54,419 nt of DNA. It comes from Solobacterium sp. GTDB lineage: Bacteria; Bacillota_I; Bacilli_A; Erysipelotrichales; Erysipelotrichaceae. The notes under the pieces are model-generated. The model was not told the DNA's origin. It searched no databases and saw only the letters and a list, made by a program, of their open reading frames with translations. Made by a program: the position numbers and the translations under genes. Shown in pieces: positions 20,572 to 30,855 of this stretch. Each line of letters opens with the position of its first letter. The first letter of the stretch is position 1. The stretch spans positions 1 to 54,419 of the forward strand of contig JAFOIT010000201.1 in the NCBI GenBank assembly GCA_017420585.1, given 5' to 3'.

Positions 20572-21405
20572 ATGAGAATCATCGCAGATTCATCCTGTGA
20601 TCTGCAGGGCCTTGACTGGGAGGACTTCCGTACAGTCCCGCTGACCATCTATACAGATGAAAGAAGCTTTGTCGATGAACCGGATCTGAACATCACAGAA
20701 ATGCTGGATTACCTGGCCCGTTTCCGCGGCCGTTCCTATACTTCCTGTCCTTCAGCCGAAGCATGGCTGAACGCTTTTGCCGGAGCCCGGGAAATCTTTG
20801 TCATGACCGTAACCAGCTCGCTGTCCGGATCCTATGCCAGCGCCATGATGGCTGCCAAGCAGTATATGGAAGAAAACCCCGGGGCAAAAGTCTCGGTGAT
20901 CGACTCCCTGTCCACCGGCGGTGAAGAAGTGCTGGTACTGCACAAACTGGCAGAACTGGCCCATACCGATATGACCTTTGAGGAAATCGATCAGGCCATC
21001 AGGGATTACCTGCTTCATACCCGGCTCTTCTTTGCCTTCTTCTCGGTTCACAACCTGAGCCAGAACGGCCGGGTCAGCAAGACCGCTGCCGCGGCCCTGA
21101 GCATGTTCAATATCGCTGTCACCGGCACGGCTACCGAAACCGGCACAATCAATGTCAACGGCAAGGCCCGGGGTGAACGCGGGGCCATGAAGAATATCTA
21201 CAAAGCGGCGCTGGAAGCCGGCTATACCGGCGGCCGGGCTGTCATCACCCATGTGGAGAACCCGGAACTGGCATCATGCCTGAAGAACATGGTCCGACAG
21301 GACTATCCGGATGCCGAAGTGCTGATCTTCCCGACCCGCGGCCTGTGCAGTTATTACATGGAACGCCGCGGCATCGTCTTCAGCTGCGAAACGGCCGGGA
21401 AATAA
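20572..21405 (+). CDS. DegV/FakB family fatty-acid-binding protein
   Basis: IIADSSCD, TSCPS, TVTSSLSGSY, VIDSLS, NGRVS; AGGAGGTG SD before ATG 20572. Confidence 0.92.
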   Translation: MRIIADSSCDLQGLDWEDFRTVPLTIYTDERSFVDEPDLNITEMLDYLARFRGRSYTSCPSAEAWLNAFAGAREIFVMTVTSSLSGSYASAMMAAKQYMEENPGAKVSVIDSLSTGGEEVLVLHKLAELAHTDMTFEEIDQAIRDYLLHTRLFFAFFSVHNLSQNGRVSKTAAAALSMFNIAVTGTATETGTINVNGKARGERGAMKNIYKAALEAGYTGGRAVITHVENPELASCLKNMVRQDYPDAEVLIFPTRGLCSYYMERRGIVFSCETAGK

Positions 21406-21419
21406 AAAAACACCCTGCT

Positions 21420-21462
21420 GAAAATGCCGTCAGGACACACGCAGTATCCCGACGGCATTTTT
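21420..21462. terminator. bidirectional terminator
   Basis: AAAATGCCGTC...GACGGCATTTT between convergent genes. Confidence 0.75.
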
Positions 21463-21477
21463 CTTTGGCGGCATCTG

Positions 21478-22308
21478 TCACCATTCTTTCAGTATCGTTT
21501 TGTAATCCAGGTTCCGGCCAACCTTCCTGTAAATATAGAACAGGCAGACAAGCTCAACGGCCAGCTGGATCAGATAGACAACGGTCGTCCCGCTGTCCCC
21601 GGAGGTATATGTCGCAGACGTATCCGTCTCAGTGAACAGGAAGATCTCATTGAGGAATCCCGGCAGGAAATCGTTCAGTCCGTGAATGATAGCCAGGCCA
21701 AGCAGATTCCTGGTCTTCCAGTACAGGATCATCATCATGCTTCCGTATACCGCGGTGTTGGCAATCTTGAGAAAAAACTGCAGGGTCTGATGCAGGTCCG
21801 AAAAGTCCGCGCTGACCACATGGACATAGCCGAATACCAGGCCCGAGATCAAAGCGGTCCAGAGGAACGGGTGCCGGCGGTTTTTCAGCAGCGGCAGCAG
21901 CGCGTCGCAGGCACAGGCACGGAAGCACGCTTCCTCATACACCCCGACGAGGAACATGTCTGCCGCAAACAGCGCCAGGTTCACCGGCCAGCCGGGGATC
22001 AGCGGCGGGTGTTCAAAGAATACTTCGAGAATCCCGAAGAGCCCGAACACAGCCGAAAAAATCAGCGTCGGCGCCAGCATCCTGAATGTATAACCTGTCT
22101 GATTGGTCAGAAACGAGAAGGTTTTCTTCCCGGAAATCAGATACAGCCATAACAGGGATACGATGGTGATGACGGCAAATTCCACCAGCAGTCCGCCATT
22201 GTCCTCAACCAGTATCCGGCTGCCCAGGATCATCAACCCGATCATCGAGGCAACCGACAGCAGCCAGAGGACCACATTCACCCATTTCCGTTTATCTGTT
22301 AAGTTCAT
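21478..22308 (-). CDS. CPBP (CAAX/Abi) family intramembrane glutamic protease
   Basis: EEACFR, FGYVH, HGLND motifs; multiple TM segments. Confidence 0.88.
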   Translation of the reverse strand: MNLTDKRKWVNVVLWLLSVASMIGLMILGSRILVEDNGGLLVEFAVITIVSLLWLYLISGKKTFSFLTNQTGYTFRMLAPTLIFSAVFGLFGILEVFFEHPPLIPGWPVNLALFAADMFLVGVYEEACFRACACDALLPLLKNRRHPFLWTALISGLVFGYVHVVSADFSDLHQTLQFFLKIANTAVYGSMMMILYWKTRNLLGLAIIHGLNDFLPGFLNEIFLFTETDTSATYTSGDSGTTVVYLIQLAVELVCLFYIYRKVGRNLDYKTILKEW

Positions 22309-22422
22309 GTCAGTTCCCCCCTTCACTGCCGGATATTTTCCCGCGGCATCCGGACACATTGAAACGTACCTTTTATTTTATACCGCAGCAGCCGTTCCGG
22401 ACATACAGAACTGATGACCGCG

Positions 22423-22456
22423 GAAAGAAAAGAAGCAGCCCCCGGGGATACTTCTT
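22423..22456 (-). terminator. terminator closing the WYL operon
   Basis: Minus strand AGAAGTATCCC..GGGGCTGCTTCT followed by TTTCTTT. Confidence 0.6.
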
Positions 22457-22481
22457 CCTGTATTCATTTATCGTTAAGCGG

Positions 22482-22808
22482 TTATTTCCGGGCCGGTTTC
22501 TTCTTTTTTCTCTCCGGCAGCTCCGGCCACATGGCCTGCAGCAGTTCACACAGGAATTCCCGGTTATCCACTTCCTTCACCAGCAGCATCTCCTTCGCGC
22601 CTTCATAGGGGATTTCTTTCGGCGCGCCGGGCATCATCTTCAAGGCTGCAGGAACCGGTTTTACCAGGAGCCGGTCATCATAGATCCCGCCGGCCAGACG
22701 GTCACGGTAGTACAGTAAATACTCGCCCATCATCGGCCGGATACGCACGTCATCCAGTCCGGCCAGCTGTTCGGAAATATAATCCAGATATGCTTTTGTT
22801 GAAGCCAT
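22482..22808 (-). CDS. TfoX N-terminal domain protein
   Basis: RPMMGEYLLYY..GGIYDDRLLVK, PYEGAK. Confidence 0.82.
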   Translation of the reverse strand: MASTKAYLDYISEQLAGLDDVRIRPMMGEYLLYYRDRLAGGIYDDRLLVKPVPAALKMMPGAPKEIPYEGAKEMLLVKEVDNREFLCELLQAMWPELPERKKKKPARK

Positions 22809-22817
22809 ACAATCCTC

Positions 22818-23564
22818 CTATCCGTTGATCAGTTTCAGGAACTTCCTGTCATTCATCTGCTCGTTTGTCAGGTATTCCCCGTCATGAAACAGGGCGTAAT
22901 TCGTAACCGGGGACGGGGCATTCCGGGCCGCCTCGCGGCTGTCCAGCCTGACTGCCCTGAAAGGGATGCCGGCCCTGGCGGCAGTTTCTTCCAGAACCGG
23001 TACATATTTGGCGTTGAACGGGCACTGATTTGTGTAATACAGCACATAGCCGCCCTCATCAATGTGCGGGTGCCTGGCGCATTCCCGAAACCGCGGTGCG
23101 GGCGCGGTCTTTTCAAACGGGAGATACCACAGCTGGATCCCGTTATCCGCCTCATCGCATACCGTAAACCCCTTGTGCTGCAGGTATTTCGGGTCCGCCA
23201 GGAAAGGTTTCTTCTTCGCTGCCGCCAGGATGCACAGCCCCGCTTTGCCCTTGGCCCGGCTGTCGGCAATGCAGGCATTGAGGAGATCGTTGGAATATCC
23301 ATGTCCCTTGAATGATCCCGACACCCACAGGCAGTCAATATACATGTAGCCGTCCGCGTCAACCGGCACCCAGGCATTTTCCGCCGGAATATACTCGATG
23401 AAGCACTTGCCCCGTTCCGCGCTTTTCAGGAAGACCAGGCCTTCATCAAACCGGTCAGCCAGCCAGGCTTTCTTGGACGAAACCTGTACATCCTTATTGT
23501 TTGAAATAGCACAGCAGATATGTTCTGTTTCCAGGTTTTCCCTTGTTACCCTTATATACTCCAT
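22818..23564 (-). CDS. YoaP-domain GNAT-like protein
   Basis: EHICCAIS, CFIEYIPAE, CLWVSGSFKGHGY (acetyl-CoA loop), C-terminal QCPF/APSP. Confidence 0.82.
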   Translation of the reverse strand: MEYIRVTRENLETEHICCAISNNKDVQVSSKKAWLADRFDEGLVFLKSAERGKCFIEYIPAENAWVPVDADGYMYIDCLWVSGSFKGHGYSNDLLNACIADSRAKGKAGLCILAAAKKKPFLADPKYLQHKGFTVCDEADNGIQLWYLPFEKTAPAPRFRECARHPHIDEGGYVLYYTNQCPFNAKYVPVLEETAARAGIPFRAVRLDSREAARNAPSPVTNYALFHDGEYLTNEQMNDRKFLKLING

Positions 23565-23580
23565 ATGCTCAGCCTCCTTC

Positions 23581-24459
23581 TTACAGGTCAAATATGTTCA
23601 TCTGCGGAAATCTCTCCGGCAGTTCGCTGATAAACCGGAAGCACTCCTCCGGACTCGACAGGATCCCGTTTGCCCGGCAGGTTTTCTGAAATACCGCTTT
23701 CAGTTCCGCGGCGTTCGGACTGGGCAGTTCATAGGCATTCCCATACTGTCTGATGTACAGTTCCTTCAGGCCGGGAAAATGTCTGTCAAGCGCGGCATAA
23801 TAGTATTCCCGGCTGCCTTCCCGCAGGGTCAGCCCCATGCCGAAATCAATAATGCCTTTGACCCCGGTACGGATGCATTCATTCAGGATTGCCGTGAGGT
23901 TTTCCTCCGTATCATTGATGAACGGGAGAATCGGTGTAATCCACACAACCGTGGGAATTTCCCTTTTCTGCATTTCCGCCAGTACTTCTATCCGCCGTTT
24001 TGTATTGCACACACCCGGTTCCAGGATTCTGCACAGGTCATCGTCGTAAGTTGTCAGCGTCATCTGCACCACACACTTTGCCGAACGGTTGATCTCATCC
24101 AGCAGATCGATATCCTGCAGGATCCGGTCCGATTTTGTCTGTACCGCGGCCCCGAACCCGTATTTATGTATGATTTCCAGGCACTTCCGGGTCAGCCGCA
24201 GTTCTTCTTCAAGAGGTATATACGGATCTGACATCGCGCCGGTTGCGATCACACACCTCCGTTTTTTTGACCTCAGTGCCTTTTCCAGCAGTTCCGGGGC
24301 ATTGCGCTTTACCTCTATATCCTCAAACGGGTGGCTGAACTGATAGCATCTGCTCCTGCTGTCACAGTAAATACAGCCATGGCTGCAGCCCCGGTAGATG
24401 TTCATTCCGATATGCCCGCCGCTGCCGGTCAGTATTCCTTTGGCATCAACAAAATGCAT
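23581..24459 (-). CDS. SPL (spore photoproduct lyase)-like radical SAM protein
   Basis: NIYRGCSHGCIYCD (CxxxCxxC), SDPYIPLE, TKSDRILQD, PILPFIND. Confidence 0.87.
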   Translation of the reverse strand: MHFVDAKGILTGSGGHIGMNIYRGCSHGCIYCDSRSRCYQFSHPFEDIEVKRNAPELLEKALRSKKRRCVIATGAMSDPYIPLEEELRLTRKCLEIIHKYGFGAAVQTKSDRILQDIDLLDEINRSAKCVVQMTLTTYDDDLCRILEPGVCNTKRRIEVLAEMQKREIPTVVWITPILPFINDTEENLTAILNECIRTGVKGIIDFGMGLTLREGSREYYYAALDRHFPGLKELYIRQYGNAYELPSPNAAELKAVFQKTCRANGILSSPEECFRFISELPERFPQMNIFDL

Positions 24460-24462
24460 GGC

Positions 24463-25101
24463 TCAGCTTCCTTTCGGTTTTACCGGGTGCCGGATCACGG
24501 TTTTCAGTTTTTCCGGTGCTGTTTTCCTGGCATCGTTCAGGTAGATTTCATGGTGCCGGCGCTGGTCCGTGATGTCCAGGTCATAGCCTTCCTGTTCCAT
24601 GAACGCATGCATCTTCTGCACCGTTGCGGGTTCATCATCATAGCAACCGATATGCATGCACTGCACGCAGAGCCCCTCTTCCAGCGTCAGATATTCCACT
24701 GCAGAACAGTCCAGCCGCTTTTTCCGGGCCGTTTCATTCACAGCCCAGCGGAATTCTTCTTCCGTTACAAAATCCGGCAAGCGGATCACGGCAATCCAAT
24801 GGAAATCCTGCTTGCGGCTGTAATCCACACCCGCGGTGCCTTCCTGCCACCAGAACCCTTCCAGCGGCGGCACCACATAATCAAAGTAGCCCTCGATCCT
24901 GTGGCCTCCTTTTTTGCTCATCTTGATGGTATAGGCAACTGCATACAGAAGCCCGATTGCCTGCTGATATTCACCATCTGCGGCATTGGGATCCCCGCTG
25001 CCCCGGACAGCAATGAAATTCATCGCGGGAACATTGACAATGGATGGCTTCCCCGCCGGCAGGTAGTATTCCTTGTATTCTTTCTTATAATCAAACGCCA
25101 T
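24463..25101 (-). CDS. GyrI-like protein of the lin2189/cyclopropyl-hydrolase-like type
   Basis: GSGDPN, LYAVAYTIKMSK, VVPPLEGFWW, MHIGCYDDE, HHEIYL. Confidence 0.82.
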   Translation of the reverse strand: MAFDYKKEYKEYYLPAGKPSIVNVPAMNFIAVRGSGDPNAADGEYQQAIGLLYAVAYTIKMSKKGGHRIEGYFDYVVPPLEGFWWQEGTAGVDYSRKQDFHWIAVIRLPDFVTEEEFRWAVNETARKKRLDCSAVEYLTLEEGLCVQCMHIGCYDDEPATVQKMHAFMEQEGYDLDITDQRRHHEIYLNDARKTAPEKLKTVIRHPVKPKGS

Positions 25102-25106
25102 GCTGT

Positions 25107-25499
25107 TTACCTCTCGATGAAAGATCCGATTTCTATCAGGTTGCCTTCCGGATCTGCAATATAGCAGGTCCTCTGCCCCCAGGGCTCTGTTGCCGGCGCC
25201 ATAATACCCTCAGCTCCTGCCGCTGTCACATCCGCATAAGCCTTGTCAACTGCGGCGTAATTATCGACACCAAGGGCTATTTCAAAATGCCCGTTAATTC
25301 CGCGGCAATAAGAATATTTCCTGTTTGTCATCTTTTCAAAGTCCGTTTTCCGATAAAGCAGGAAAAGTGTGCCGTCTTTTTCAAGAAAAACATTTGTCGT
25401 ATTCTCTTCCTCTTTGATTTCAAACCCCAATACGTCCCTGTAAAAGCGGACCATTGCCGCCATATCATCAACCATGATCCCGAATCCATCCAACCTCAT
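25107..25499 (-). CDS. VOC (glyoxalase/bleomycin-resistance fold) protein
   Basis: DMAAMVRFYRDVLGF, FEIAL, PWGQRTCYIADPEGNLIEI. Confidence 0.9.
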   Translation of the reverse strand: MRLDGFGIMVDDMAAMVRFYRDVLGFEIKEEENTTNVFLEKDGTLFLLYRKTDFEKMTNRKYSYCRGINGHFEIALGVDNYAAVDKAYADVTAAGAEGIMAPATEPWGQRTCYIADPEGNLIEIGSFIER

Positions 25500-26416
25500 A
25501 ATACCTTATCCTCTCTGTATAACATCGCCATTTTATCTGCCATACGGGCGATTTCGTTTCTTGCTTCTATGGGCTCGAGTACTTCCGCCTTGTCCCCGAA
25601 TGTCATCAGCCACGTGACCAGGTTCTCTATATCTGTATAGTCCGCCGTGAACAGCAGTCTGCCGTCTCCAGACTCTGTAAAGCATGCCGGACCGAACTCT
25701 TCTACCAGCCGCCACTTCTGATCAGCACTGAATAAAACCTTTACCCTGATTCCGCCAGGAAAGATTTTTTCATTTGACAGATCCGGCAAAACCGTTTCCC
25801 TGCACACAAAAGAGGTATTTGCCTTACGGACATGAACCATGCGGTTCAGTTTGAACAGCCGGAAATCCTGACGGTCACAGCACCAGGCCCAGAGGTACCA
25901 GCTGGACCAATGGAAGATCAGATAATACGGCTCAACAGTCCGCACGCTGTCCCCCGTCGGCGCATAGTACTGAAAGCTGATCAAGTGCCGGGTTTCAACC
26001 GCGTCCTGTATAGTCTCTATCTTCGGAGCCAGTGAATCCCGATTCCATGACGACAGATCGATCAGGATCGAATCCCTGCCGCTGATAAACTCTGATGATC
26101 CGGTCTGGATCTTCTCCATCAGCTGGCTGTAGTACCGGCTGCCGCTGACACTGTCCAGGCTGCGAAGCCCGGCAAGTATCATCTGCATATCCTTTGAAGT
26201 CAGGATCATCCGGTCCATCCGGTAGCCGTCCATGATGCGGATGCCGCCTCCCGGCCCGCGCAGGGTCTGGATCGGTATGCCGGCCATGCACAGTGTTTCG
26301 ATATCCCGGTTGATTGTCCTTCGTGACACTTCGAATTGTTCCGCCAGTTCCGGGGCGGTTGTCTTGTCTTTCTGCAGCAGCACCGACAGGATGCCGATCA
26401 GTCTGTCTGTTTTCAT
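25496..26416 (-). CDS. YafY/PafB-type HTH-WYL-WCX transcriptional regulator
   Basis: TAPELAEQFEVSRRTINRDI HTH; RTVEPYYL, SWYLWAWC, FRLFKLNRM; WLMTFGDKAEVLEP; ATGA overlap with the VOC gene. Confidence 0.92.
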   Translation of the reverse strand: MKTDRLIGILSVLLQKDKTTAPELAEQFEVSRRTINRDIETLCMAGIPIQTLRGPGGGIRIMDGYRMDRMILTSKDMQMILAGLRSLDSVSGSRYYSQLMEKIQTGSSEFISGRDSILIDLSSWNRDSLAPKIETIQDAVETRHLISFQYYAPTGDSVRTVEPYYLIFHWSSWYLWAWCCDRQDFRLFKLNRMVHVRKANTSFVCRETVLPDLSNEKIFPGGIRVKVLFSADQKWRLVEEFGPACFTESGDGRLLFTADYTDIENLVTWLMTFGDKAEVLEPIEARNEIARMADKMAMLYREDKVL

Positions 26417-26433
26417 CTTTCTTTCTCCGTATG

Positions 26434-26472
26434 TATCATAGCAGGGATAACATGACACCTCTATGTCATGTT
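26434..26472 (-). promoter_or_regulatory. WYL operon promoter: palindromic operator plus extended -10
   Basis: Perfect AACATGACA-N6-TGTCATGTT (26449-26472) just upstream of TG-C-TATGAT; no consensus -35. Confidence 0.75.
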
Positions 26473-26515
26473 TATGACAAAATCTGTTTTCTGCCGATTT
26501 TTTGTCTGAAATAAC

Positions 26516-26545
26516 AAAAGACAGCCGTGTTATCACAGCTGTCCC
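26516..26545 (-). terminator. terminator after the serine hydrolase gene, insulating the WYL promoter
   Basis: Minus strand GACAGCTGTG-ATAA-CACGGCTGTC-TTTTGTT. Confidence 0.75.
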
Positions 26546-26569
26546 ATTAACTGTTTTGCACGATTCCGG

Positions 26570-27553
26570 TCAGAGGCTCCGCAGCAGATCCAGACCGGGA
26601 TTTTCCACATCAAGCAGCGCGTAATTGGTGCCGATGAACACGGCTGTCCTGTTCCGGCGGCTCAGGCCAAGCCAGGCACTGAAAGCACCCGCGCTGCCGG
26701 TATGCCAGGAAATGCCGTCGTCCGTCAGCCGCCAGGCAAGGCCACTTCTGAACCCTTTTTCGCCTTCACCCTGGACCTGGTGGCAGAGATCCAGGTACGG
26801 CCTGCTGTCATCCATCTGGATGGCCGCGTATTTCAGCATATCCGCAGCGGTTGAATTCAGGGCTCCGGACGCCATGATAATGTCACTCTTTTCCCACTGC
26901 CAGGTGGAACAGGGATTCCCTTTCCTGTCATAGCCGGTGATATCAACATTGCCGATCATCGTCTCCTGCAGACCCAGGTCATTCTGGATATAGTCATTCA
27001 TCAGATCCCAGTAATTGTTTTCCCCGATCACGCCGAGAATATAGCCGAGGATCCCGTAGCCGAGATTGGAATAGGCGAATTTATACTCCTTGTCCTTCAG
27101 CTTCGTTTCGGCAATCAGTTTCCGCATGGCAGCCTCGTCAAGGGTGCCGCGGAACGGATTGACATGCAGGAGGCCGTCCGGTTTATTCATGTTCGCAAAC
27201 CGGATGAGTGTTTCCAGCGTGCCGAAAGGCTTCCCGCCGTAACCGGACGAATGCACAGCCAGCCTGCGCAGGGAAGGATAGTACTGCTTCGGAAGGCCGT
27301 TGATATATTCGGAAATCGGCGCGTTGAGGTCTGCTTTCCCTTCCCGGACATACTTCGCAAGCAGTGAAGCGGTAAAGGTTTTGCAGATGGACCCAACAGG
27401 ATACGTAAGGGTTTCAGCGGATTCATTCTGTTCAGGATCAAGGTGAAGAATCTGTGTCTCCTCGTCCCGGAGAATGCCGAGGGTCATTTCCATGTGTGAT
27501 GTTTTCGGGTACAGTTTCCGGATGACCGGAGCGGCAGCTTCTCTGATATCCAT
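26570..27553 (-). CDS. serine hydrolase of the beta-lactamase class C/esterase family
   Basis: SxxK (GSICK), YxN (AYSN), HTG; no signal peptide. Confidence 0.85.
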   Translation of the reverse strand: MDIREAAAPVIRKLYPKTSHMEMTLGILRDEETQILHLDPEQNESAETLTYPVGSICKTFTASLLAKYVREGKADLNAPISEYINGLPKQYYPSLRRLAVHSSGYGGKPFGTLETLIRFANMNKPDGLLHVNPFRGTLDEAAMRKLIAETKLKDKEYKFAYSNLGYGILGYILGVIGENNYWDLMNDYIQNDLGLQETMIGNVDITGYDRKGNPCSTWQWEKSDIIMASGALNSTAADMLKYAAIQMDDSRPYLDLCHQVQGEGEKGFRSGLAWRLTDDGISWHTGSAGAFSAWLGLSRRNRTAVFIGTNYALLDVENPGLDLLRSL

Positions 27554-27738
27554 AATGATCTCCTTTATCTATATTTTCCGGTTTGCATATAGTGCTGTCT
27601 TTGTCCCCGTTACGGCGGTCAAACGGAATAATATCACTGCTGTCCGCCGTCTGCGGCAGCACAGATTTCCATGTATTGACAATGAAGATAAATCCTGATT
27701 TGTATTTCCTGGTCTTTTTTGAATGACAGCCGGCTCTT

Positions 27739-28095
27739 TCAGGATTCATTCTTCCCGGCAGTTTCGAGCCTGCCCAGCGCATCAGGATTGTTTCTGATAA
27801 TCGCCCCGACTTTTCCGCACGACTTCATTTCCGGGCAGCTGCCGCAGGTTTCCATCTTCCTGGCTGCAGCACAATGCCTGATCGGACATAAAGAATCACA
27901 GTACACAGTCTTTACTCCCGGAATCCGGCAGCCGGAACAGTTGATCATTTCCGGGGTGATTTCCGCGCCGTTAAGTATGGACCATTCCTTGGCGACTTTT
28001 ACCCGCAGATCATTATCGTTGTTTACTGTTGCCAGACGCGCTTCACAGGCCTCACAGTCCAGGCCGCAGTATGCAGTATAAGCATTCATAACCAT
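27739..28095 (-). CDS. DUF3795 Cys-rich protein
   Basis: YCGLDCEAC, CSGCR, CPIRHCA, CGSCPE. Confidence 0.8.
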   Translation of the reverse strand: MVMNAYTAYCGLDCEACEARLATVNNDNDLRVKVAKEWSILNGAEITPEMINCSGCRIPGVKTVYCDSLCPIRHCAAARKMETCGSCPEMKSCGKVGAIIRNNPDALGRLETAGKNES

Positions 28096-28163
28096 AGCCC
28101 TCTTCCCTTCATTTTACACTTCTATGTTTTCATAATATACATTGAAAAGAAGCTTATGTGCCT

Positions 28164-28676
28164 TTACATGATATTGATCCAGTATCTTTGTTCCGCAACA
28201 CCGTCAACAACGATTTCATTTTCGAGAATGCCGCCGTTGTTGATGATGCTTTTGGCCGATCCGACATTATCCCTGTCACATACCATAAGCACCTTGCGGA
28301 TACCCAGTTCCCTGCATTTTTCCAGCGCCAGCGTAATCATGGCTGTGGCATAGCCCTTTTTTCTCTCACTTGGCCTGATGCCGACGCCTATATGCCCGCC
28401 GTTTAATAACAGCCGCTCGTTCAGACAGTGTCTTATATTCACAGCGCCGACGATTACATTTCTGTCCGTATCAAAACAGAAATAAGTCGAATCCGGCACA
28501 AGCCCTTCCTGCGGTTCGGTAACTTCAAGCGAGGCAAGATACTTTTCAAAATCATGATAGTCTGTCTTGCGGATGGCATACGGAATAATTTTCTCGCCGG
28601 TCATTGTCCATTCATCCATCATCTCGGAAATCTGTCTTCTGTATTTTTCCTCACCTTTTACCAGCACCAGGTTCAT
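28164..28676 (-). CDS. GNAT N-acetyltransferase (COG3981-like)
   Basis: GGHIGVGIRPSERKKGYAT, CDRDNVGSAKSI; GAGGTG SD before ATG 28676. Confidence 0.87.
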   Translation of the reverse strand: MNLVLVKGEEKYRRQISEMMDEWTMTGEKIIPYAIRKTDYHDFEKYLASLEVTEPQEGLVPDSTYFCFDTDRNVIVGAVNIRHCLNERLLLNGGHIGVGIRPSERKKGYATAMITLALEKCRELGIRKVLMVCDRDNVGSAKSIINNGGILENEIVVDGVAEQRYWINIM

Positions 28677-28944
28677 GGTTTCACCTCTTTGCGCGCTGCT
28701 GCAGCGCCTGGGACAGCATGACTGCCGTTCTTCATATAATTGAATCTCATCGTCCAGGGATTCCATCCGGTGCCGGCACCGGGCATCATCCATGACCGCT
28801 TTCATTGTATCAATATAAAAAACGGGTTTGCAGATGCTGTCTCCCCGTTTTTCGTTTTTTGCCTGTAAGGCGTTCTCCCAGGTCATCGATTTTCCCCATG
28901 GCCTGCAGTCTGAAGATCATCTTTCCCAAAAACGCCGGCCAGTC

Positions 28945-29139
28945 TCAGACACCCGGCCGGTGTGCCTTTTCAACTTCCTTAATGAATTGTTCTGTGTTTT
29001 CCCCGATCAGGCCGCCGTGTCCCATGTCTTCGAAAATCCTGAAGGTGAATGGGTAATCCTTTTCTTTCAGTTCCATCAGGCCGGCCGAAAGCTTTTTGTC
29101 CACGGTTCCTTTGATTCCGTACCAGATATGCATATCCGT
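28945..29139 (-). pseudogene. C-terminal remnant of an alpha/beta hydrolase
   Basis: (TD)MHIWYG...FEDMGHGGL resembles the hydrolase tail with the catalytic His; the N-terminal part is replaced by repA sequence. Confidence 0.6.
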
Positions 29140-29267
29140 AGACCATAAAGGAACTTCGCCTCAACAGATATATCCTTGAACTGCTCGCTGGTGATCAGCA
29201 GCTTCAGGATCCGATAGAACTGATACTGCTCGGCATCTTCCGGTCCGTAGAAATAGTTAAACTCCAT
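29138..29267 (-). pseudogene. repA: truncated replication initiator RepA (RepA_N) of an ICE/IME
   Basis: MEFNYFYGPEDAEQYQFYRILKLLITSEQFKDISVEAKFLYGL matches the RepA_N start; AAGGAGG SD; similarity stops after about 43 codons. Confidence 0.78.
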
Positions 29268-29302
29268 CTGCTCTCCTCCTTTCTCAAATCTTCTTTAAAC
29301 GC

Positions 29303-29345
29303 AAAAATGACGTTTACTCTCCGCGAAATGCAGAAAATAAACGTC
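29303..29345 (-). terminator. terminator/attenuator hairpin directly upstream of repA
   Basis: Minus strand GACGTTTATTTTCTGC-ATTTC-GCGGAGAGTAAACGTC-ATTTTT, a 16-bp stem with G-U pairs. Confidence 0.7.
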
Positions 29346-29516
29346 CATAATCAACGTGGTACTCTATTGTCTATAAGTCCTCGAGTTTTGTTCCTACAGT
29401 AACGAGTTCAATTACTATAGACACCCGAACGTACTTTTCGAGGCGTTTTCCACGCTTCGGCCAGTCGGTCTCACCGAAGGTAAAATGCTCGTAAAAGTGC
29501 TTAAAATAAAGGATTT

Positions 29517-30848
29517 CTACGAGTTCAACTTTTGTAGCAACACTATAGTCTCGATGTGCAGGGTGCCCGGGAACATGTCCACGGGCTGCACGCTCTGCAC
29601 TTCATAACCCTTTTCACGCATATATGCACAGTCCCGGGCCAGGGTGGCCGGATCACATGACACATAAACCAGTTTCTGCGGGGCGATGCGGACAATGGCA
29701 TCCAGGGTATCCTGGGTGCATCCCTTGCGGGGCGGGTCAACGATGACCACATCGGCTTTGACCTGGTTCCGGAGCAGCTGTCTTGCCCCGGTGTTGGCAT
29801 CCGCTGTCATGAACTCGATATTCCTGACCCCGTTGCGTTCCGCGTTGATCCGGGCATCCTTTATTGCGTCGGCCACGATTTCAATGCCGTATACCTGTTT
29901 TGCCTGCGCGGCTGCGAGGATGCCGATGGTGCCGGTGCCGCAGTACAGGTCAATGACTGTTTCCTTCCCGGTCAGCCCGGCTGTCTCCACTGCCTTGCCA
30001 TAGAGCACAGCGGTGCTGTACGGATTGATCTGAAAGAACGAGCGGGCACTGATGCGGAAGGTCCTTCCCAGCAGTTCCTCCTCGATATACCCGGGGCCGC
30101 TGAGGATAACCTCCTTGCCGTCCAGGATCACATTGTCTTCCCGCCGGTTGATGATGCAGGAGATGCTTTTGACCTGCGGGTATTTCTTCTGAATCCGCCG
30201 CAGCAGCTCATCCGCTCCGCGGAACGGATAATGCCGGACGATCATGCAGATCATGGCCTGCCCGCTGTTATGGGCGTGCCTTATAAGCACATGGCGGAAT
30301 TCGTCCGCGCAGCGCAGTTCCTTCAGCCAGCGGCGCAGGTCCCCGGTCACGTCATTGGAAAAATCTGTCTGCACCAGGCAGCGGTCGTATTCAACGATAT
30401 CGTTGGTCCGGTTGCGGTAAAAGCCCATCAGCACCTGGCCGCGGCTGTACTGCACCGGCACCTGCACCTTGTTGCGGTAAGCCGTCTGTTCCGGCGTATA
30501 CAGGATTGGCAGGATATCCACTTCCATGCCGGCATTCTGGCGGAAACAGTTCCTGACTTTGTCTTCCTTGAACGCGTGCTGCTCGGTGATGTCCATATGC
30601 ATCAGCTGGCAGCCGCCGCACTGCCTGTAGACACTGCAGGCAGGTTCCCGGCGGTGTGCCGATTTCTTCAGCAGCCGGACAATCCGGGCATAGCCGTAGT
30701 TTTTCTTCATGGCCGTGATGCCGAGTTCCGCTTCCTCCCCGGCAATCAGCCCGGGCACGAAGAAAACCATGTCCCCGGCATGAACCACGCCGGCCCCGTC
30801 AAATGTGTAGCCGCTGCAGACTGCTGTAAATGTATCGTTCTTCTTCAT
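29517..30848 (-). CDS. rlmD: 23S rRNA m5U1939 methyltransferase RlmD (RumA)
   Basis: TRAM domain, C..Y..CGGC Fe-S motif, SFFQIN, DLYCGTG, VDPPRKG, YVSCDPATLARD, DMFPGT.HIE; ATG 30848 preferred to TTG 30854. Confidence 0.95.
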   Translation of the reverse strand: MKKNDTFTAVCSGYTFDGAGVVHAGDMVFFVPGLIAGEEAELGITAMKKNYGYARIVRLLKKSAHRREPACSVYRQCGGCQLMHMDITEQHAFKEDKVRNCFRQNAGMEVDILPILYTPEQTAYRNKVQVPVQYSRGQVLMGFYRNRTNDIVEYDRCLVQTDFSNDVTGDLRRWLKELRCADEFRHVLIRHAHNSGQAMICMIVRHYPFRGADELLRRIQKKYPQVKSISCIINRREDNVILDGKEVILSGPGYIEEELLGRTFRISARSFFQINPYSTAVLYGKAVETAGLTGKETVIDLYCGTGTIGILAAAQAKQVYGIEIVADAIKDARINAERNGVRNIEFMTADANTGARQLLRNQVKADVVIVDPPRKGCTQDTLDAIVRIAPQKLVYVSCDPATLARDCAYMREKGYEVQSVQPVDMFPGTLHIETIVLLQKLNS

Positions 30849-30855
30849 AATCAAT

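Follow-up and report, generated by a model that had tools for sequence, protein, structure and literature searches.

Do six closely spaced genes that follow one another in a Solobacterium sp. genome, headed by a gene for a WYL-domain regulator, act as one unit, and what would switch it on? The genes lie on the minus strand of a 54,419-nucleotide stretch, contig JAFOIT010000201.1, which we call the window, and encode the regulator, a VOC-fold protein, a GyrI-like protein, a radical SAM protein, a YoaP protein and a TfoX-N protein. The observations from which we start are the gene content of this cassette, its conservation, the geometry of its operator and promoter, and the conserved residues of the regulator and the predicted hydrolase. 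By comparison with characterised WYL proteins, we give a probability of roughly 60% to the following reading: a WYL dimer would sit on a palindrome at its own promoter and, triggered by single-stranded DNA (ssDNA), would activate a promoter lacking a -35 element, amplifying itself and its cargo.

As the preliminary description had stated, the six genes are co-oriented, with successive gaps of -4, 5, 3, 16 and 9 nt; a purine-rich ribosome-binding tract is clear at four of the five genes downstream of the WYL gene. Pfam matches agree with the families given earlier for five of the products (HTH_11, WYL and WCX in the regulator, each above its cut-off; Glyoxalase; GyrI-like; Radical_SAM; YoaP with Acetyltransf_1), and the TfoX_N match was borderline, slightly below its cut-off (29.4 versus 30.1 bits). 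The two terminators said to bound the operon fared differently: the upstream one is well supported, and the downstream one is weak and was not called by a consensus terminator scan. A GTG start for the WYL gene (346 aa, frame to 26536) was rejected because the longer frame overruns the promoter and the terminator, and the ATG at 26416 (306 aa) was taken.

A search of GTDB species genomes with the WYL protein gave 316 relatives, of which we kept the best 80 (67-80% identity). By record label these belong mostly to Lachnospiraceae, and also to Erysipelotrichaceae, Oscillospiraceae and Anaerovoracaceae. The palindrome that had been noticed upstream of the WYL gene is perfect in the window, where it is the sole exact copy in the 1.97-Mb assembly. 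Scored over 16 fixed positions, with its two degenerate positions counted as free, the operator AACATGACA-N6-TGTC(A/G)TGTT precedes the WYL gene in 73 of the 80 loci (64 perfect, nine with one mismatch). All 73 have TAnnnT, usually TGnTATGAT, 8 nt downstream of it. Only three further copies occurred in 935,801 flanking bases, each preceding a radical SAM or GyrI gene. The host's own genome had no further operator of equal quality; one site with two mismatches, on contig C68, falls within the control count. A looser operator pattern allowed 77 loci to be scored for -35 and -10 elements, and a -35 matching at least 4/6 positions was present at this downstream promoter in 0/77. The core spacing in the cassette is GAC-N8-GTC for the operator and TGTCRT(N11)TAnnnT for operator and promoter together.

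To judge from the sequence, this is the operator-promoter geometry of the ssDNA-activated regulators DriD and PafBC. (Papers are cited here by PMC number from excerpts, and what we say of them holds for those excerpts.) DriD of Caulobacter crescentus (PMC13004042) and DdaA of Moraxellaceae (PMC12392091) are likewise winged helix-turn-helix (HTH)-WYL-WCX proteins with a GAC...GTC palindrome at the regulator's own promoter; the DriD element, CGAC-N7-GTCG, overlaps the -35 position of promoters without a -35, at a fixed distance from the -10 (PMC13004042, PMC12392091). The cassette differs from both in its N8 spacing instead of N7, its longer arms, its extended TG -10 and its Firmicutes host, and in being a probably mobile cassette whose predicted targets serve small-molecule detoxification and accessory repair rather than a recA/didA-type core. 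PafBC recognises tGTCgg(N10)tA(N3)T through two HTH arginines (PMC8635444) and shares with the cassette the GTC near -26 and the -10 without a -35 (PMC8635444, PMC11804915, PMC6789036), but it binds a half site as a heterodimer, whereas the cassette has a full palindrome and one regulator gene. SiwR of Mycobacterium smegmatis is also a class A WYL activator that acts locally, on small genes next to it, with a palindrome upstream of the -10; its targets belong to the DinB superfamily, sometimes with a glyoxalase-like gene, and are induced by genotoxic and oxidative stress (PMC10693628). SiwR is actinobacterial, divergently arranged and uses another palindrome, with GGA at -26 (PMC10693628), while the cassette regulator heads its own operon with GyrI, VOC, radical SAM, YoaP and TfoX-N cargo.

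The regulator itself agrees with this comparison. In a PDB search its best match was PafC, to which it is closer than to CapW. All 81 homologues keep R33 and R37 in the HTH and R159, W173, Y174, R186 and R192 in the WYL domain. Both operator arms contain GTC and the two HTH arginines are spaced i, i+4; by analogy with PafBC, we infer that R33 and R37 contact the GTC triplets.

Two of the cargo proteins have relatives that act on DNA-damaging compounds. The GyrI-like protein matches lin2189 with an E value of 1.6e-65 over 205 residues, and among its homologues the catalytic glutamates are conserved (E157 in 57/57, E185 in 56/57, the remaining one being X). The lin2189 cage residues Y46, W85, W99, F154 and Y187 correspond to Y45, W84, F100, Y154 and Y187, that is, three identities and two aromatic exchanges; the equivalents of Y54 and Y58 are identical too. 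An acidic pair together with the aromatic cage sets the hydrolases of the lin2189/YtkR7 type apart from SbmC, BmrR and Rob (PMC5684135), so the assignment of the preliminary description held, and the protein probably hydrolyses cyclopropane warheads. The excerpts of PMC5684135 give no WYL control or operon for lin2189/YtkR7. Kinship of the VOC protein with mitomycin-sequestering proteins was likewise borne out: its best PDB match is MRD of Streptomyces lavendulae (1KMZ/1KLL), with an E value of 2e-14 compared with 4e-6 for the next family. MRD holds its ligand in a clamp of two aromatic side chains (PMC3175449). W107, the equivalent of MRD W108, is invariant. The VOC protein may sequester planar drugs.

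For the remaining cargo, the earlier proposals found no such footing. SplB-like radical SAM proteins have been linked to SOS regulons (PMC3765255, PMC7739468), and the cassette protein had been called SPL-like (after spore photoproduct lyase) and assigned to repair; nothing ties it to that role. Support for the name comes from NCBIfam matches below cut-off (PA0069, 144.8 of 360 bits; Rv2578c, 135.4 of 430; mobile-pair-B, 80.6 of 410), which indicate relationship and not membership, and from automatic Atlas names. In the structural model (predicted local distance difference test score 76), SPL is among the top folds (template-modelling score 0.53, 12% identity, Z 13.1, root-mean-square deviation 3.9, 237 aligned residues), tied with lipoyl synthase, NifB and SuiB. 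Drug acetylation had been proposed for YoaP, and again nothing ties the protein to it: profile searches gave generic GNAT and thioredoxin matches, and the model (score 95) gave generic GNAT matches with no pointer to a substrate. C18 and C181 of YoaP are invariant. TfoX-N had one weak profile match, to Vibrio TfoX-N; a kinship with YjbR was not detected by profile comparison of shallow alignments (probability 1.6). PDB sequence searches returned no match for radical SAM, YoaP or TfoX-N.

The cassette had been described as a self-contained six-gene system. Co-occurrence and order proved to be conserved, but a fixed set of six did not. Among the 56 of the 80 loci with at least 3.5 kb of downstream DNA, 54 have at least one of the five cargo genes after the WYL gene: YoaP in 44, GyrI in 43, VOC in 30, TfoX-N in 28 and radical SAM in 16. 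Of the 47 loci that have at least two cargo genes, 42 keep the gene order, and the other five all place radical SAM last. The complete set is present in 5/56, with radical SAM broken in two of these. A gene of the YjbR family, also named MmcQ/YjbR and linked to the mitomycin cluster, takes the place of VOC after the WYL gene at 13 of the 80 loci (L025, L036, L037, L039, L047, L057, L059, L060, L062, L064, L066, L073 and L090); VOC is present in 41/80, and the two never occur together. Within the host's genus, some part of the cassette was matched in 19 of 24 genomes, one of which (G012) has all six genes in order.

The operator and promoter also occur outside the cassette, where, as the proposal of a WYL-type damage switch would have it, they head, among others, genes of DNA repair and genotoxin immunity. 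A scan of 50 of the 80 WYL-bearing genomes yielded 15 extra sites that were fetched. They include cassette copies, a stand-alone VOC gene, YjbR-DUF3795, DUF3795, Cass2/GyrI and an Fpg-like glycosylase, as well as a WYL remnant with radical SAM and a DNA-alkylation-repair gene behind it; four sites have no recognisable target. An exact-motif scan covering 3 of 64 metagenome parts found at least 115 loci (about 3600 estimated), in which human-gut cassette copies are redundant (99 unique motif strings). First genes were labelled by BLAST against the cassette proteins and by Pfam (78 open reading frames scanned); the resulting counts of target families, like those given below for Clostridia, stand without a random-promoter background. 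They were WYL 37, DUF3795 9, GyrI/Cass2 8, VOC 7, PNPOx-like 5, zinc ribbon 3, and YoaP, DUF1706, YjbR and isochorismatase 2 each, with no family at 7 and no usable open reading frame at 17; radical SAM, Tag glycosylase, UvrA-like, nitroreductase, flavin reductase, GNAT, MFS and others occurred singly. The TG of the extended -10, which was absent from the search pattern, is present at 45 of the 66 unique non-WYL sites. When 200 genomes were drawn evenly from Clostridia, the class of genome G070, 26 had the strict motif at a total of 36 sites, against 0/201 for a reversed control; 3 of 400 genomes from the host's own GTDB phylum had it. The Clostridia sites head GyrI/Cass2 (15), DUF3795 (6), VOC (3), DUF3788 (2) and zinc ribbon (2) genes, one each of DUF1706, radical SAM, WYL, DJ-1 and flavin reductase, and three genes without a family. 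An AlkZ-related gene stands second or third at 4/36, an Fpg-like and a DUF1706 gene follow at one each, and the DNA fetched for 19/36 includes a WYL homologue (32-65% identity).

Without any remnant of a WYL start, the operator directly heads radical SAM (L029/L039, L149, L271) and VOC genes (L127, L291). It also directly heads genes for lin2189-type GyrI (L253, L272-L274), the DUF1706/ClbS family (L180, L189, L292), Tag (L168), and Fpg-like (L135) and UvrA-like (L173) proteins. One DUF1706 protein matches ClbS with an E value of 6e-6; ClbS, itself a DUF1706 member, detoxifies colibactin through ring opening (PMC10693628), and orphan ClbS-like proteins have been found in colibactin non-producers (PMC11581169). 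Recurrent operator-headed units have an AlkZ-related gene behind a DUF3795 or PNPOx-like gene (L262, L263, L279, L289, L158, L164), several with a VOC gene after or a distant WYL gene before. Sites L064, L132 and L225 were not accepted as independent, since their WYL-start remnants mark them as deletion derivatives. TfoX-N was not seen as the first gene after the operator among the sites examined; L202, a candidate, was discarded for a DUF3795-like start preceding TfoX. Read by eye, the same geometry stands beside YafY proteins of 34-41% identity in Listeria innocua and two Enterococcus records, where the elements (L300:3862-4000, L302:3448-3500, L301:4913-4981) precede DJ-1-type or flavin-reductase genes; the Listeria innocua locus was rejected as the neighbourhood of lin2189, its adjoining gene being DJ-1-type. 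Since the geometry recurs beyond the cassette, the element is not unique to it and belongs family-wide to YafY-type WYL proteins of Firmicutes. On our reading, the cassette is one packaged module within a wider Firmicutes WYL regulon.

Several points weigh against an ssDNA-triggered, anti-genotoxin role. The position of MRD H38, presumably the histidine of the drug-stacking clamp, is N36 in 39/39 VOC homologues. No producer of yatakemycin, CC-1065 or mitomycin is known to be resident in rumen or gut. YoaP and radical SAM show only generic folds. Synteny alone is not independent evidence, because the 80 loci, the closest of 316, are connected through common descent and through transfer. Among the operator's first genes there are neither recA nor lexA and a single UvrA-like gene, the 15 GyrI/Cass2 binders at the Clostridia sites are mostly of the non-hydrolase type, and many targets are redox proteins or have no known function (PNPOx-like, nitroreductase, flavin reductase, DJ-1, DUF3795, DUF3788). 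Finally, PafC binds ssDNA through two WYL-domain arginines (PMC11804915); the second is kept as R192, and the first, R201, is replaced by K189 in 81/81 homologues, a position at which DdaA departs likewise (PMC12392091).

Because so many genes of the wider regulon are redox-related or functionally unassigned, a broader response is conceivable, in which the same regulator and operator would serve against electrophiles, oxidants and xenobiotics in general, the ligand might be another nucleic-acid fragment, and DNA-reactive products would be only part of the targets. The isochorismatase and DJ-1/PfpI families, Cass2, the Cys-rich DUF3795 and the thioredoxin-like domain of YoaP with its invariant C181 fit such a response, as do the replaced ssDNA arginine and the finding that SiwR targets are induced most by H2O2 and zeocin (PMC10693628). 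We nevertheless consider it unlikely: the lesion-repair families Tag, Fpg-like, AlkZ-related and UvrA-like and two unrelated cyclopropane-hydrolase families carry the element, and the characterised class A WYL activators DriD, PafBC, SiwR and DdaA all act, in the excerpts, in DNA damage responses.

In the mechanism that we favour, the WYL dimer would sit on the palindrome beside its own promoter through R33 and R37. DNA damage would generate ssDNA, whose binding to the WYL domain would turn the protein into an activator, in the manner of DriD, SiwR and PafBC and independently of LexA. Activated WYL would recruit RNA polymerase to the -35-less promoter, and the six genes would be made as one transcript; GyrI would destroy cyclopropane warheads, VOC would sequester planar drugs, and radical SAM, YoaP and TfoX-N might act on further lesions or compounds. 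No near-consensus copy of the Firmicutes SOS box (up to one mismatch) was found in 21400-29500, and the host genome has one LexA-like match only, below cut-off.

Most relatives have a second promoter upstream, with a TATAAT-like -10 (at least 5/6) that ends 1 nt before the palindrome in 64/77 loci and a -35 (at least 4/6) in 37 of these 64, against 8 of 320 shifted controls. Bound WYL may block this canonical promoter, giving low basal expression and positive feedback. With its end so close to the palindrome, a bound dimer would cover the canonical start site, and one could picture a CapW/BrxR-like repressor that silences the cassette until a ligand releases it. This is improbable: the canonical promoter is largely limited to WYL genes (14/26 versus 2/66 non-WYL sites) and has decayed in the window, whereas the promoter common to all sites is the fixed-distance -10 without a -35, and the protein, with its WCX domain, is nearer to PafC than to CapW. 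The two-promoter layout, canonical before the palindrome and -35-less after it, is seen across L011-L090; at L016, L034, L035 and L131, the promoter and the WYL start are set further apart by an insertion of ~80 nt, which lengthens the leader.

The cassette is likely to be horizontally mobile. In a quick tree of WYL proteins, the four own-genus copies are scattered over four positions, and records labelled Lachnospiraceae and Erysipelotrichaceae contain near-identical proteins, which together fit horizontal transfer. Flanking genes beyond the cassette are not conserved among relatives. Cassette ends adjoin serine recombinase, Tn916-type integrase or primase/helicase genes at L121, L125 and L069/L072/L083; copies beside such genes are consistent with carriage on integrative elements. 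Firmicutes mobile elements are known to integrate at rlmD/rumA; in the window, a RepA_N fragment directly downstream of rlmD is probably the remnant of an element integrated at the rlmD 3' end, with cargo to about 21500. One might then see the cassette as unrelated accessory genes gathered by chance in such a remnant and inherited as a block, given RepA_N and rlmD 2.5-3 kb upstream, rlmD within 8 kb upstream in 16/48 loci, frequent gene loss and frameshifts, and a taxonomically mixed tree. Yet divergent homologues of the cargo families (44-71% identity) have their own operator at unrelated loci, so block inheritance does not explain them, and order is conserved although flanks vary; we hold this explanation to be very improbable. 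That the cassette is an anti-phage module, on the ground that WYL regulators govern defence systems in other bacteria, is scarcely credible, as 0/5 cargo proteins matched PADLOC anti-phage models and the operator-headed genes belong to detoxification, repair and redox families.

We regard the cassette, which gut and rumen Firmicutes share, as a DriD/SiwR-like regulon in a Firmicutes variant that travels as a mobile unit for detoxification. New are the Firmicutes operator, the detoxification-centred target set and the packaging as a mobile cassette. As the preliminary description had supposed, the combination is not described in the open literature searched, nor is WYL together with GyrI-like and radical SAM (subscription papers and supplements lay outside the search). 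Queries combining WYL domain, glyoxalase and mitomycin, or WYL and ClbS, led to the SiwR paper only (PMC10693628), and titles and abstract beginnings showed no Firmicutes WYL regulon. The characterised WYL damage activators that we found come from Actinobacteria and Proteobacteria, yet class A WYL proteins also abound among Firmicutes, for which the cassette gives a regulator, a precise operator-promoter and a directly testable target list. In commensals, it brings an MRD-like binder and two unrelated families of cyclopropane hydrolases under one predicted damage-sensing switch. This has implications for the survival of gut bacteria exposed to colibactin-type genotoxins and for the microbial handling of DNA-reactive drugs. 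The cassette also offers guilt-by-regulation leads for several families without known function. More tentatively, and with some doubt, gut and rumen Firmicutes might share a LexA-independent, horizontally traded anti-genotoxin regulon, in which one WYL switch and one operator-promoter would command pooled orphan proteins: lin2189-type and ClbS-family hydrolases for immunity to cyclopropane alkylators, MRD-like VOC for immunity to planar cross-linkers, and AlkZ-related, Tag and Fpg-like proteins for the lesions that these compounds cause. If so, these habitats would hold unrecognised small-molecule genotoxins, and YoaP, TfoX-N, DUF3795, DUF3788 and the cassette radical SAM family would represent new detoxification or repair activities.

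Table 1. Features of the WYL cassette and its surroundings in the window
Feature	Position	Strand	Evidence
24-bp perfect palindrome AACATGACA-N6-TGTCATGTT, predicted WYL-dimer site, about -44 to -21	26449..26472	.	
Extended -10, TG-C-TATGAT, 8 nt from operator, without -35	26435..26443	-	
wHTH-WYL-WCX regulator, class A, YafY-type, 306 aa	25496..26416	-	Pfam
VOC-fold protein, nearest solved relative mitomycin-binding MRD	25107..25499	-	Pfam and PDB comparison
GyrI-like protein, lin2189 cyclopropanoid cyclopropyl hydrolase type	24463..25101	-	Pfam and sequence/active-site comparison
Radical SAM protein, CxxxCxxC at 25-32, PA0069/Rv2578c-related 'SPL family'	23581..24459	-	
YoaP, GNAT domain and C-terminal thioredoxin-like YoaP domain	22818..23564	-	
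TfoX-N domain protein, stand-alone	22482..22808	-	
Intrinsic terminator of upstream serine-hydrolase/beta-lactamase-fold gene, insulates cassette	26518..26545	-	z -4.0
Probable weak terminator after TfoX-N, bulged hairpin and U run (no call at about 22423-22458 by consensus scan)	22423..22458	-	z -1.3
RepA_N replication-initiator fragment, directly downstream of rlmD	29076..29267	-	
rlmD, context gene	29517..30854	-	

Upstream of the cassette lie a beta-lactamase-fold gene, a DUF3795 gene, a GNAT gene, the RepA_N fragment and rlmD. The DUF3795 gene (27739-28089, minus strand) has no operator here, though DUF3795 is among the commonest operator-headed first genes elsewhere. Three more WYL-domain genes are present in the host genome (G000; contig C69, 19600-23211, and contig C61, 35673-35900), where no match to the cassette operator was found. 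RNA-labelled runs with matches consist of contigs with short scattered pieces, and one run also has pieces of the flanks; these runs give no sign of co-transcription or of induction. G+C content at third codon positions is 0.50-0.68 in the cassette genes, compared with 0.75-0.77 in the housekeeping neighbours rlmD and an ABC ATPase gene.

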